24,270 bases of DNA from a virus (lineage: Duplodnaviria > Heunggongvirae > Uroviricota > Caudoviricetes), in IMG/VR virus record IMGVR_UViG_2695420699_000007. One strand, given 5' to 3'. This document shows positions 3,001 through 9,000 of the stretch, piece by piece. The first letter of the stretch is position 1; each line of letters starts with the position of its first letter. Made by a program: the position numbers.

Positions 3001-6000
3001 CAGTTCGGTGGTGGTAATGAGGAGACGAACCTCTGGACCCTCTGTACTGAATGCCATCGCCAGAAGTCAGCGAGTGAAGCGGCGAGTGGTATGCCTGATC
3101 CGACGTTGCCTGAGCTTCCTGATGGCACGCTCAGGGCCGACGGAATCACTGGCCTGTGACCAGACCCGGGGGGGGATCATCCGGCGAAAAAAAACGATCG
3201 CCCCGGACACCGCCCCCCGTCTCACGCAGAGAAAAAATTCCCGTTTCAGGGCAGTTAACATGTTAACTGGCTGTCCGGGCATTTTTGCGGTTTTTATCTT
3301 TATTATTCAGTTTGTTGTGCGGAAAAAATGTTAACTGGCTTTTTCAGCAAATGTTAACCAGGCAGCAGTTAACATTTGCGGCATGAGACGCCGGGAAAAA
3401 TGGGCTGAACCATACCCGGCTGAGTGCGTTCTGGACCCGGGAGGAGGCTGTGCTGACAACGCAAAAACGAAAATTTGCGCTGGCGCTCATGTCCGGGAAA
3501 AACAAAACAGCGTCAGCCATTGCCGCCGGTTATTCGGCGAAGACCGCCAGGGTTAAAGGCTCGCAGCTGGCAAAAGATCCGGAGGTGCTTGCGTTTATAG
3601 CCCGTAAACAATGCGAGACGGTGGAGGTGGATGAGGTTCCTGTTTACCGGCAGAAAAAATCAGAGCAGGAGGATAAACCCCGTCGCCGTGAGGCGGCTGC
3701 AATACCACAGCCGGACGAAAACAATCCGGAGATGCCACCGTCCGCGGTGATGTCTCCTGGTATTGAATATATGGAGGATGGTCTTCCCGATCCGGTGAAA
3801 GCGATGGGGCGTCTTCTGGTGGAGAACATTAATACCGACCCCAGGCTGGCGCTGGATGCGGCTTATAAGCTGGCGCAGTTCACGCACCATAAAAAAGGGG
3901 ATGCCGGTAAAAAATCGGCAAAAGGTGACGCGGCGAAAAAAGCGGCTAACCGTTTTGCGGTGCCACCACCACCCCGCCTGGTGGTGAATAATGATAATGA
4001 GGGCAACGGATGATACCTGTGTGGAGCACGGCCTGCCCGGACTGGGCAGAGCGCCTGAAAAAGGGGCTGTCGATTATTCCGGCTCCGATTTATCCGGACC
4101 AGGCTGCACATGCACTGGCGATTTTTAAACAACTGCGAATTGTGGATGCACCGGGTAGCCCGACATTCGGGGAGTCCTGTGCACCGTGGGTGTTTGACCT
4201 GGTGGCGGCCCTGTTTGGCTCCTACGATGCGCAGACCGGTGTTCGCCATATCAAGGAAGTGTTTATCCTTATCCCCAAGAAAAACAGTAAGTCCACGCTG
4301 GCTGCGGGGATCATGATGACGGCGCTGTTACTGAACTGGCGGCAGGCGGCGGGCTACACCATTCTGGCCCCGACCGTGGAGGTGGCGGCTAACGCCTTCA
4401 ACCCTGCCAGGGATATGGTACGACGGGACGATGATCTGGATGACCTCTGTCAGGTGCAGACACATATCCGGACCATCACCCATCGGGTGACGGACACCAC
4501 CCTGAAGGTGGTGGCAGCCGATCCGAATACGGTGTCCGGTATCAAGTCCGTGGGGACACTGATTGATGAACTGTGGCTGTTTGGCAAGCAGTACAAGGCG
4601 GAAGACATGCTACGTGAAGCCATCGGCGGGCTTGCCTCCCGTCCGGAAGGGTTTGTGGTGTATACGACCACCCAGTCGAATGAACCGCCCGCCGGGGTGT
4701 TCAGACAGAAACTGCAGTATGCCCGGGATGTCCGTGACGGCAAAATTCATGATCCGCACTTTCTGCCGGTGATTTTTGAGCATCCTCCTGAAATGGTGGA
4801 AAGCGGGGCTCACCTGCTGATGGAAAACCTCGCCATGGTTAACCCGAATCTCGGTTATTCGGTGGATGAGGCCTTTCTGTACCGGGAGTACCGTAAAGCC
4901 CGGGAGGCTGGTGAGGAAGCATTTCGTGGCTTCATGTCAAAACACGCCAATGTGGAAATCGGTCTTGCCCTGCGTTCTGACCGCTGGGCGGGCGCGGATT
5001 TCTGGGAGCAGCAGGGCAGGCGCGTCAGCCTGGACGATATCCTGCAGCGCGCTGATGTGGTGACGGTGGGGATTGACGGCGGGGGCCTGGATGATCTGCT
5101 GGGAATGTACGTGACTGGCCGTGACAGGGAAACCCGCGAATGGCTGGGCTGGGGCCATGCCTGGGTGCATGAAACCGCGGTGGTCAGACGGAAGAGTGAG
5201 GCATCCCGGTTTCAGGATTTTGTGGCCTGTGGAGACATGACGATTGTCCGTCGGGTCGGGGATGACACGGCGGAAGTGGCGGAGTATGTGCGTCGTATTC
5301 ATGAGGCTGAGTTACTGGATCATATCGGTATTGACCCGTCAGGTGTGGGGCAGATTCTGGATTCACTGGCGGAAGCCGGGATCCCCGATGAGAGTGTGGT
5401 GGGGATAAGCCAGGGCTGGAAGCTGGGCGGGGCCATCAAAACCACCGAGCGCAAACTGGCTGAGGGAGTGCTGGTGCATGGTGGTCAGCCACTGATGGCC
5501 TGGTGCGTTGGCAATGCCCGGGTGGAGCCTAAAGGTAACGCCATTCTTATCACCAAACAGGCCAGCGGACGGGGAAAAATTGACCCGCTGATGGCGCTCT
5601 TCAATGCGGTGTCCCTGATGTCCCTGAATCCGGAACCGAAAAAGAAAGCGTATGAGGTTTTTTTCATATAACCCTGCTCACCCTGTAACCATCATGAACC
5701 GCTGCGGCGGTTTTTTTATTTTCAGGAGGCTGATGTGACTCTTAAACGGGCCTGTTCCCTGCTGACGGTGAAATCCTTCAGTGAGGATGAACGGGTGATC
5801 ACCGGGATTGCGTCAACGCCTTCTCCGGATCGGGATGGTGACATCCTGGAGCCGGAGGGGGCGGAGTTTGGCAGTACGATCCCGTTTCTCTGGCAGCATG
5901 ACCATTCCCGCCCTGTAGGCCAGTGTACGGTGCGTCGGGTCAGGGAAGGGCTGGAAATCACGGCAATGCTGGTGAAGCCGGAGCCGGGGATGCCCTCCCA

Positions 6001-9000
6001 GATGGCAGCCCGGCTGGATGAGGCCTGGGCTGCCATTAAGACCGGGCTGGTCAGGGGGCTTTCTGTGGGCTTCCGGCCCCATGAATACACTTATCTGGAC
6101 GGAGGCGGACTGCATTTTCTGCGCTGGGAGCTGATGGAGGTGTCTGCCGTCACCGTGCCCGCGAATGCGGAATGCACCATCCGGACCATTAAATATTTCG
6201 ACCGCCCGTTTTCTGCCGCGTCCGGCAACCGGAAACCGGTGGTGAAAATCGCATCTTCTGCCGGCGCTTCGGCACAGTCAATAACCTCTTTTCATAAGGA
6301 AAAGTCAGCAATGAATACTGGTGAACAGATTAAAAGTTTTGAAAACAAGCGTGCGGCGCTGGCAGCCTCCCTTGAGGAGATCATGAACAAAGCCGCAGAG
6401 GAAGGCCGCACACTGGATGTGGAAGAGGAAGAGCACTACGACAACACCGCAGCGGAAATCCGTCAGGTGGATGCGCACCTGAAGCGTCTGCGTGAACTGG
6501 AAACCAGTAAGGCCGCCACGGCACAGCCGGTGAAACAGGCCGGTAACGGGAATGTGGCCACGGTGGCTTCAGCGCCGGTGATCCGTGTTGAGCAGAAACT
6601 GGAGAAGGGGATTGGTTTCGCCCGCTTTGCCAAATCACTGGCCGCGGCTAAAGGTGTCCGCTCTGAAGCCCTGGAAGTGGCCCGTCGTCAGTATCCGGAT
6701 GACAGCCGTCTGCATCATGTCCTGAAATCGGCGGTGGGGGCAGGGACCACCACGGACCCGCAGTGGGCAGGCAGCCTGTCTGAATACCAGGAATATGCGC
6801 AGGACTTTATTGATTACCTGCGTCCGCAGACCATTATCGGGCGATTTGGTCAGGGCGGGATCCCTGCACTTCGTCAGGTGCCGTTCAATATCCGCGTGCA
6901 TGCCCAGGTGTCCGGTGGTGCTGCCGGCTGGGTGGGTGAGGGTAAGGCCAGACCCCTGACGAAGTTTGATTTTGAATCCATCACCTTCAGTCATGCGAAA
7001 GTGTCGGCCATTGCGGTACTGACGGAAGAATTGATCCGTTTTTCCAGTCCGGCTGCTGATGCACTGGTCCGTAATGCGCTGGCGGAAGCGGTGGTGGCGC
7101 GTCTGGACACAGACTTTGTGGACCCGAAAAAAGCGGCGGTGGCGGATGTCTCCCCGGCGTCCATCACCCATGATGTGAAGGGCACGGCATCAACCGGTAA
7201 CCCGGATGCGGATGCCGAGGCCGCGTTTGGCCAGTTTGTGACGGCAAATCTGCAGCCCACCGGTGCGGTCTGGCTGATGTCCAGCACGAATGCCCTGGCG
7301 CTGTCCATGCGTAAAAATGCGCTGGGGCAGAAGGAATATCCGGACATGACCCTGCTGGGCGGGACCTTCCAGGGGCTGCCGGTGATTGTCTCCCAGTATG
7401 TGGGTGACCAGCTGGTACTGGTGAATGCACCGGATATTTATCTGGCTGATGACGGCGGTGTGGCGGTGGATATGTCCCGTGAAGCGTCACTGGAGATGCA
7501 GTCTGAACCGACCAGCGACAGCAGCACACCGTCACCGGTGGAACTGGTCTCCATGTTTCAGACCGGCAGCGTGGCCATCCGTGCGGAGCGCTGGATCAAC
7601 TGGCGTCGTCGCCGTACCGCGGCAGTGGCGGTGATCACCGGTGTGAACTACGGAACTGCGTCCGGTGGCTGAGTCTGATGAGGAGGGCGGGAGGCGCGAG
7701 CTTCCCGCAGTAACAGATGGCAAAAATCCAGTATCTGCAGGGCACGCATGATGCCCGGGCCGGGGATATCCGTGATGTGGCACAGCCGTGTGCGGAGGTG
7801 CTGGTTCGCCTGGGGAAGGCGGAGTACATCACAGCGCGACGTCCGGCAGGTCAGAAAAAGAAACGTGATGCGGAGCATGGCGAATGTGGAACCTTTTGCG
7901 GCGAACCCGAAAAAACCAGAAATCAGGACGTGACGTAAGAGAAGTGGGCTGGCGGTCCCTGTTTCAGGCGGTGGCTGAGCCTTTTGCCGGTGCCTGGCAG
8001 CAGGGTGTGAAAGCCGATCCGGAAACCGTTTTGTCCTTTCACGCGGTGTTTTCATGCATTTCGCTGATATCCCAGGATATCGCCAAAATGCGGCTTCGCC
8101 TGATGCAGACTGATGTACAGGGAATACGCCGGGAAAAGCGGCAGGGAGATACTGCCCGTCTCTGTCGTCGTCCTAATGCGCAGCAGAATCGCATCCAGTT
8201 TTTTGAACTGTGGCTGAATTCCAAATTGCGTCACGGCAATACGGTGGTGCTGAAAATCCGCAACCCCCGGGGGCAGATCAAAGAACTGCGTATTCTGGAC
8301 TGGAACCGGGTTGAACCTCTGGTGGCGGATGACGGCGACGTGTTCTACCGCATCACGCCGGACCGGAACTGTGGGATTACAGAGTCGGTGACGGTGCCTG
8401 CCCGGGAGGTGATCCACGACCGTTTTAACTGTTTTTTTCATCCGCTTGTGGGGCTGCCGCCGGTGTATGCCGCAGGACTGGCCGCCATGCAGGGGCATCA
8501 TATTCAGGCAAATTCGACGTATTTTTTCAGAAATGGCGGGCGACCATCAGGCGTGATTGAGGTCCCCGGCAGTATTACGGAAGAAAACGCGAAAAAACTG
8601 AAGGGGAACTGGGACAGCGGATATACGGGCGAAAATGCCGGGAAGACGGCCATACTGAGCAACGGGGCAAAATACAGCCCCACGACGTTTTCACCGGTGG
8701 ATGCGCAGACGGTGGAACAACTGAAAATGACGGCTGAAATTGTCTGTTCGGTGTTCCGTGTCCCGGCCTACAAGATTGGCGTTGGCCACCCGCCTTCCAG
8801 TGACAACGTGGAGGCGCTGGAGCAGCAGTATTATTCCCAGTGTCTGCAGACGCTGATTGAGTCCATTGAGCTGTTACTGGATGAGGCGCTGGAAACGGGG
8901 GAAAACGAGAGCACGGAGTTTGACGTCACCACGCTGCTGAGAATGGACAGCGAACGGCGCATGAAAACACTGGGTGAATCGGTGAAAAATACGCTTCTCA

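Follow-up and report, generated by a model that had tools for sequence, protein, structure and literature searches.

Comparative evidence for a probable nested capsid gene within the fused prohead protease-capsid gene of lambdoid Stx-converting phages

The fused gene and its domains

The window considered here is the whole 24,270-nucleotide stretch of the virus record IMGVR_UViG_2695420699_000007 (Caudoviricetes), and the locus under study in it is the head-assembly core of a lambdoid Shiga toxin (Stx)-converting siphophage. The analysis concerns one open reading frame (ORF) of this core, at 5735-7672, in which an HK97-family prohead protease is joined to the major capsid protein, and an in-frame ATG inside it, at 6311, from which a second, capsid-only product is probably translated. 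A first-pass annotation of the sequence had described a protease, a scaffold-like segment and a capsid protein in a single ORF. This description holds, as the 645 codons contain no stop and the parts are fused in relatives down to about 38% identity. In the 645-residue protein, the domains follow one another in the order prohead protease, linker, delta domain and HK97-type capsid domain (Table 1).

The protease was recognized in a Pfam search by PF04586 (Peptidase_S78), which matches residues 48-151 with 32.7 bits against a cut-off of 21. The protease model TIGR01543 gave 44.1 bits, below its stricter equivalog cut-off of 59, and the head maturation protease family phrog_80 matches the ORF at E = 1.4e-40. 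On the capsid side, PF05065 (Phage_capsid) matches residues 386-635 (55.5 bits, cut-off 24.2, E = 7.5e-15), and TIGR01554, the model of the HK97 major capsid protein, matches residues 204-584 with 80.9 bits against a cut-off of 27.5 and begins at model position 3. The full-length fused family phrog_617 matches the whole of ORF 5735-7672 at E = 3.8e-259, and therefore a family of such fusions exists. The gene is not a member of the NCBIfam family NF045541 (prohead protease/major capsid protein fusion protein), which reached 52.7 bits against a cut-off of 525, over residues 49-267 only; the two fusions are alike in architecture and different in lineage.

It is likely that the fused protease is active, since His55 (in WQHD), Ser110 (in GLSxGF) and Glu135 show no change in 36 sequences that reach down to 38% identity; these are the residues that we take, from what is known of the protease family, to be the probable catalytic ones. 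The protease can be made only as part of the full-length fusion. An AlphaFold2 model was built from an 18-sequence alignment (mean predicted local distance difference test score, pLDDT, 42.9) and was read for the protease, linker and delta segments only. It predicts a beta-rich domain at residues 5-138 (pLDDT 70-80) and an unstructured linker at residues 141-193 (pLDDT about 25), followed past Met193 by two long helices, 195-222 and 229-261 (pLDDT about 77). These helices correspond to the Glu-rich, delta-like segment that had been noticed in the first pass, and in a profile of relatives this helical part aligns to residues 3-77 of the solved capsid protein 9gyi_B. For the shell region (residues 337-645), the pLDDT stayed below 50 with the 18-sequence alignment; its HK97 fold is backed indirectly by the solved capsid proteins 9d9w and 8gta, which match the shell domain by sequence. 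Among the ORFs of the window, no separate scaffold gene was found between terL and the portal gene.

No other stretch of the protein varies as much as the linker, which in 18 enterobacterial homologs also holds most of the insertions and deletions, and Met193-Asn194 is invariant directly after it. Among relatives, the linker ranges from 30 to 59 residues. A motif of the form P/A-G-[AV]-[ST]-[GA] is kept in the linker of many fused relatives, in the window as AGASA (6260-6274, residues 176-180), and also occurs as 'PGVSG' in the C-terminal tail of an unfused Acidovorax protease. This motif may be a capsid-targeting tail of the protease or a self-cleavage site.

Distribution of the fusion

The fused stretch is 100% identical to that of the Stx1a-converting phage Stx1_132418. 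In total, 93 phage records match it, most of them with at least 95% identity, and they comprise Stx1a, Stx2a and Stx2c converting phages and related lambdoid phages. The fused ORF was also found in 1252 of 5426 complete Escherichia coli genomes (about 23%), often in several copies and under the label 'phage major capsid protein'; in NC_049941 it is annotated as 'major capsid protein'. The O157 entries of the gene show 95-100% identity and the gene order of the window. Fused homologs of 644-648 residues with 73-77% identity occur in Salmonella, Enterobacter, Klebsiella, Serratia, Pantoea, Kosakonia and other Enterobacterales, and relatives of the gene are present in several proteobacterial classes. 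An exhaustive search of cluster representatives at the 50% identity level returned 1174 relatives at E ≤ 1e-30; the best 150 were classified and 143 of them are fused, down to about 38% identity. The plaque-forming phage phi330, a siphophage with a 55 nm head (PMC12502783), carries the gene with 95.3% identity. Pseudomonas phage PAJU2, which is also plaque-forming, has a 48% identical product, ORF003, annotated as 'prohead protease fused capsid protein'. The fusion itself was known and annotated before this analysis.

The reality of the fusion itself was considered with these records in hand. The first-pass annotation had allowed that a sequencing error might have removed a stop codon between the protease and capsid segments, and a recent mutation could likewise have left an artefact or a decaying pseudogene where two genes once stood. 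Unfused relatives do exist, and some database entries of the gene are visibly damaged (P0005, P0002 and P0003). However, an identical fused ORF is found in independent assemblies, namely in the 93 phage records and the 1252 E. coli genomes, across many genera, and in phages that form plaques. Moreover, the reading frame stays open through the linker in all 66 distinct fused junctions for which DNA was compared (a viral-contig scan was among the sources), despite the variation in linker length. A sequencing error or a dead gene was therefore rejected, since the fused ORF recurs across phages, genomes and relatives to about 38% identity, and this explanation is barely conceivable. The fusion is old, because the fused clade spans about 38-100% identity and the unfused relatives for which DNA was read are more distant (31-39%).

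The damaged or mis-called versions in the databases include a 1079-residue entry joined to the terminase and a 784-residue entry joined to the portal protein (P0002, P0003), as well as a 602-residue entry (P0005) with a deletion of 43 residues (292-335). In phage SOVA965, the capsid gene is split into two annotated coding sequences, probably by frameshift errors.

Unfused relatives begin their capsid gene at Met193

The in-frame ATG at 6311-6313 encodes Met193 of the fusion, and the alignment of unfused relatives shows that this codon is homologous to their capsid start codon. In an Acidovorax locus (L022), the protease ORF stops at 3585 with 'PGVSG...FLK', an end that falls within the linker region of the fused gene, and the separate capsid gene starts at GTG 3603 (MNLQEQIKRL). 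In two Snodgrassella loci (L023 and L025), the capsid gene is separate as well and starts in L023 at ATG 3729 (MTIEEQINAV). In Burkholderia phage vB_FUBS1 (L108), the capsid ATG at 2557 lies 13 nt past the protease stop. The unfused junctions share a layout of stop codon, Shine-Dalgarno (SD) sequence, short spacer and start codon, which reads 'TAAtcccgAAAGGAcaccccGTG' in L022 and 'TAAGGAttccttacgcATG' in L108, and L022, L023 and L108 share their gene order with the fused loci. In the stand-alone capsid proteins P0258 and P0267, which are about 50% identical to the query, residue 1 aligns to query residue 193. Since the unfused starts align to Met193, the linker consists of the C-terminal tail of the protease and the former intergenic spacer, read through in frame.

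A comparison of two junctions may illustrate how a single base can fuse or split the genes. Positions 2530-2560 of the vB_FUBS1 locus read 'tca ttt caa TAA GGA tt...ATG', and positions 6290-6313 of the window read 'tct ttt cat aag gaa aag tca gca ATG'; TAAGGA is a stop codon and SD sequence in vB_FUBS1, and the corresponding bases of the window are Lys and Glu codons and the SD sequence. At 39% identity, this likeness may be a coincidence.

Selection on the start codon and on the Shine-Dalgarno sequence

The residue at the junction is strongly constrained. In the 143 fused clusters it is Met in about 129, Val in 13, Leu in one and Ile in none, and the Val residues for which DNA was read are encoded by GTG in four of four cases (L018, L091, L099 and L105). 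This pattern resembles the usage of bacterial start codons and not the replacement pattern of a structural Met.

The SD sequence AAGGA upstream of ATG 6311 had been pointed out in the first pass with a distance of 11 nt, which counts from its last A; the sequence is present and the spacer is 10 nt. To compare this site across the 66 junctions, an SD core was defined as AGGA, GGAG, GAGG or AAGG at positions -16 to -5 before an ATG or GTG. Such a core was found at 66 of the 66 junctions. In the same ORFs, the background was 10.1% of 1902 other in-frame ATG or GTG codons and 10.5% of all codon positions. The distance from the SD core to the start codon is 4-11 nt across the junctions. The core is encoded in 54 hexapeptide contexts (KEK, KGN, KGK, QGK, TGN, PEEG, PKEG, PQEG, NRRK, LES and others), and its GG falls in all three codon phases. 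The Gly codons at codon positions -6 to -2 are GGA in 35 of 54 cases (65%); outside these positions, 7.8% of the 3268 Gly codons in the ORFs are GGA.

The internal pair of ATG and SD sequence thus exceeds chance, and the comparison shows purifying selection on the internal start codon and, at the nucleotide rather than the peptide level, on the SD sequence. Simple inheritance is disfavoured because the SD sequence is kept across many peptide contexts and codon phases. This evidence for selection on an internal start appears to be new; the literature search turned up no description of an internal start for a protease-capsid fusion, although a prior report is possible, as some relevant papers lay outside the search.

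Weighing the internal start

Several observations weigh against initiation at 6311. The duplex of the internal AAGGA with the 3' end of the 16S rRNA is only moderate (-6.2 kcal/mol) and its spacer of 10 nt is long. The site in front of the full-length ORF is stronger (AGGAGG, -10.3 kcal/mol, 5 nt), though it precedes a GTG start. The predicted accessibility of the internal site is 0.52 versus 0.39 ± 0.10 for the ORF, about 1.3 standard deviations above the mean, and in the window a weak CUUUUC/GAAAAG hairpin can partly mask the SD sequence. The junction sequences are related to one another, so that 66 of 66 exaggerates how many independent observations there are. For this phage group, the literature search brought up no data from ribosome profiling, from N-terminal analysis or on precursor proteins; for phi330, virion mass spectrometry is mentioned with the data not displayed (PMC12502783). 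Within each ORF, the internal site ranks no higher than the top 5-20% of codon positions by its SD duplex energy. Taken together, the measures made on single sequences are not decisive, and the case rests on the comparison across sequences.

The same modest SD sequence and long spacer would suit a reading in which only the 645-residue fusion is made, every capsid subunit carries its own protease, and the internal ATG and SD sequence are functionless relics of the fusion. The pair was indeed inherited from the unfused state, and the P2 protein gpO, as reported, offers a precedent for a protease fused to an assembly protein that works as a single species. However, a relic would be expected to erode where the protein changes fastest, yet the SD core stands at all 66 junctions over a background of 10%. 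Encoded anew in 54 peptide contexts and in three codon phases, it imposes a rare GGA codon, while the start position accepts only Met, Val or Leu across the 143 clusters. The age of the fusion, judged from the 38-100% identity of the fused clade and the 31-39% of the unfused relatives with DNA read, also speaks against a relic. The single-product reading is thus unlikely.

A role other than initiation was also weighed. At 11 loci, the GC content and the RNA structure of the internal site are at or close to the minimum of the ORF, and Met193 stands two residues before the predicted helix 195-222; Met217 (ATG 6383), a candidate alternative start, falls inside this first delta helix. A purine-rich and AT-rich element might therefore be conserved as a ribosome pause that allows the protease to fold, or as a site of RNA processing or stability, with Met193 kept as the beginning of the delta helix. 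Such an element would leave unexplained why Val, encoded by GTG, is the main substitute for Met and Ile never is, why the spacing between SD sequence and start stays at 4-11 nt despite a linker range of 30-59 residues, and why unfused relatives start translation exactly at the equivalent of Met193. This explanation is considered quite improbable, more so than that of a functionless relic.

Initiation at Met193 is thus the preferred reading, and the first-pass proposal that an internal start may yield a capsid-only product has gained strong comparative support from the starts of the unfused genes and from the kept ATG or GTG with its SD sequence. It is quite likely that the gene specifies nested in-frame products, a 69.4 kDa protease-capsid protein and a 48.4 kDa capsid-only protein that begins at the internal start. 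A nested start is no surprise in principle, yet here it is well supported and widespread.

A parallel in Microbacterium phages

A similar layout was seen in Microbacterium phages of cluster EE (L110-L114), which carry a protease-capsid fusion in another gene order, with the portal gene placed before the fusion. In five of five genomes (75-100% identity), the junction holds GAGAGGA or CAGGAGGA, followed 4-10 nt on by an in-frame ATG. The site lies after a variable linker, where the protease domain gives way to an acidic helical segment (at about 4280-4305 in L110). This appears to parallel the internal start of the window; the sample is small and its members are closely related, and the parallel is suggestive only.

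The balance tips slightly towards a general and so far unannotated rule, in which phages with a protease fused to a delta-bearing HK97-type capsid protein retain under selection the ribosome-binding site and the start that the capsid gene once had. If this rule is true, the fusion would be a minor subunit for the covalent delivery of the protease and the bulk of the shell would come from internal initiation. The rule would cover proteobacterial prophages, which include the Stx phages and occur in roughly one in four complete E. coli genomes, as well as small-genome actinobacteriophages.

Proposed expression and assembly

We infer ribosome initiation at 6311, together with the co-assembly, stoichiometry and cleavage outlined here. 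Translation of a single late mRNA would begin at two in-frame starts. Initiation at GTG 5735 would give the 69.4 kDa protein, with protease, linker, delta domain and major capsid protein, and initiation at ATG 6311, guided by AAGGA, would give the 48.4 kDa protein of delta domain and major capsid protein, with the predicted N-terminus (M)NTGEQIK. Co-assembly of the two is expected because they share the delta and shell domains, and it would proceed through these identical parts. Each full-length subunit would bring one protease into the interior of the prohead, and the number of proteases per head would be set by the relative rates of initiation at the two starts. Once the head is assembled, the protease would cut away the linker, the delta domains and itself, and a mature shell protein of about 37 kDa would remain.

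The start codon of the full-length product was compared as well. Among distinct 5' junctions it is ATG in 62 and GTG in seven, and GTG is the codon of the E. coli Stx-phage lineage, in contrast to the ATG of most other lineages. In this lineage, GTG 5735 overlaps a two-codon ATG-TGA start-stop in another frame (5733-5738). The GTG start and the overlapping ATG-TGA might reduce how much of the full-length product is made compared with the internal one.

Long-tailed Stx1, Stx2a and Stx2c converting phages carry the fused gene, and all annotations give it one protein only. If ribosomes do initiate at the internal start, an unannotated nested gene would be the source of the virion protein that is most abundant in these phages, and the precursor of that protein would be 48 kDa rather than 69 kDa, with consequences for gene calling, for proteomics databases and for the expression of capsids for structural work or engineering. 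The two-start model also provides a testable answer to how the copy number of the protease per head is controlled in protease-capsid fusion phages. A working internal start would further let lineages switch between the fused and the split form by a single stop-codon change.

Neighbouring genes and upstream elements

The features of the locus are collected in Table 1. The genes of the module follow the order HNH endonuclease, small terminase subunit (TerS), large terminase subunit (TerL), protease-capsid fusion, a 73-codon ORF and portal. The same order of terminase, fusion or capsid, and portal is found in PAJU2 and in the unfused phage vB_FUBS1.

Table 1. Features at the protease-capsid locus, in window coordinates
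Feature	Position	Strand	Remarks
Terminase large subunit	4010..5671	+	TerL_ATPase and TerL_nuclease matches; immediately upstream of the fused gene
Terminator-like GC hairpin and T-run	5696..5722	+	Stem 5696-5713, then TTTTATTTTC; between terL and the fused gene
Shine-Dalgarno sequence AGGAGG of the full-length product	5724-5729	+	5 nt before GTG 5735
Full-length ORF	5735..7672	+	645 codons without internal stop; 645 aa, 69.4 kDa; GTG start
HK97-family (Peptidase_S78) prohead serine protease domain	5735..6187	+	aa 1-151; Pfam PF04586
Variable linker	6188..6310	+	aa 152-192; former protease C-terminal tail and former intergenic spacer
Internal Shine-Dalgarno sequence AAGGA	6296-6300	+	10 nt before ATG 6311
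Proposed nested gene, delta domain and major capsid protein	6311..7672	+	Met193 to shared stop; 453 aa, 48.4 kDa
Predicted helices of the delta (internal scaffold) domain	6317..6517	+	aa 195-222 and 229-261; AlphaFold2, TIGR01554
HK97-type capsid shell domain, Pfam Phage_capsid	6890..7639	+	aa 386-635
Portal protein	7884..9248	+	PF04860 E = 2.3e-79; TIGR01537 E = 3.6e-109; downstream of the capsid gene

The hairpin between terL and the fused gene directly precedes the 5' ribosome-binding site. Nearly all enterobacterial homologs retain the layout of hairpin, T-run and (A/T)GGAG(G), as do the distant loci L021, L081, L087, L092, L101 and L103; the bases of stem and loop vary among homologs and the pairing is preserved. 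The hairpin may be an intrinsic terminator that is passed by antiterminated polymerase, or an element of mRNA stability or processing.

The 73-codon ORF (7717-7938; phrog_829, function not known) overlaps the start of the portal gene by 55 nt, and PAJU2, vB_FUBS1 and SOVA965 carry an ORF of unknown function at the same place between the capsid and portal genes. After the portal gene, an ORF at 9245-10231 overlaps the portal stop by ATGA and contains a 162-bp unit repeated 1.9 times with 97% identity (9461-9765). Its RefSeq label is 'portal protein' and it has a weak CBM_5_12 match at residues 278-300. This ORF matches positions 603-859 of the PHROG 'portal' family phrog_2271 and the portal gene matches positions 1-451. 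The two are thus a single ORF in some relatives, because both match parts of this family; they form a second fused or split pair in the same module.

Comparison with known systems

In phage Mu, the genes I and Z are nested in frame and encode a protease and a scaffold. The same kind of nesting was shown by ribosome profiling for gp17/gp17.5 of the archaeal virus HFTV1, and it is described for lambda C/Nu3 and for UL26/UL26.5 of the herpesvirus HSV-1 in the same source (bioRxiv 10.64898/2026.09.13.751334). The locus of the window resembles those of lambda, HSV-1 and HFTV1 in that an ORF with an N-terminal protease contains an internal in-frame start for a shorter, abundant protein with the same C-terminus. 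A further likeness is that the shared assembly domain carries the protease into the procapsid and that the ratio of the two products is set at expression; for the fused gene, the two products and their ratio are predictions. However, in systems of the lambda C/Nu3 type the nested product is a scaffold of its own and another gene encodes the capsid protein, whereas here it would comprise the delta domain and the whole capsid protein (6311-7672). The lambda C protease also belongs to a different peptidase family from that of the fusion. The analogy to C/Nu3 drawn in the first pass therefore stands for the mechanism but not for homology, as the nested product would be scaffold plus capsid rather than scaffold alone, and the locus is not a member of that arrangement. 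HSV-1 differs in addition by its internal promoter. A crude scan found no sigma-70-like promoter in 5400-8000, and late lambdoid transcription would not need one; an internal promoter inside the fused ORF, as in UL26.5, is thus without support.

In its domains, the gene is like gp4/gp5 of HK97, with a Peptidase_S78/TIGR01543-like protease, a TIGR01554 capsid protein with an N-terminal delta scaffold, and no separate scaffold gene. In HK97, the protease and the capsid protein are encoded by separate genes, in the order portal, protease, capsid, and the protease is recruited non-covalently. In the window, the two are covalently fused and the portal gene lies downstream. The departure from the HK97 gene order that had been remarked on in the first pass is thus correct, and the order terminase, protease-capsid, portal is typical of this lineage.

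Phage P2 offers a different comparison. Its protease-scaffold gpO is reported to be made only at full length, without an internal start, and to cleave itself after assembly (as cited in bioRxiv 10.64898/2026.09.13.751334). The gpO protein is like the fusion of the window in having the protease covalently joined to an assembly domain, and it differs in that the protease is fused to a scaffold and not to the capsid protein. By analogy, a design with the fusion alone is possible in principle, which counts against a nested capsid gene.

Protease-capsid fusions have been called 'unusual' or 'apparent', and no second product was mentioned (PMC5513430, PMC9671004); the actinophage fusions have their architecture in common with the gene of the window. 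Further lineages with a protease-capsid fusion are Arthrobacter clusters AM, AU and AN, Rhodococcus RRH1 and NF045541. The database annotations of the gene in E. coli genomes, NC_049941 and PAJU2 give one coding sequence and no internally initiated product. If the nested capsid gene is real, the nesting of protease and scaffold known from lambda, Mu, the herpesviruses and an archaeal virus would extend to phages that carry the scaffold inside the capsid protein.

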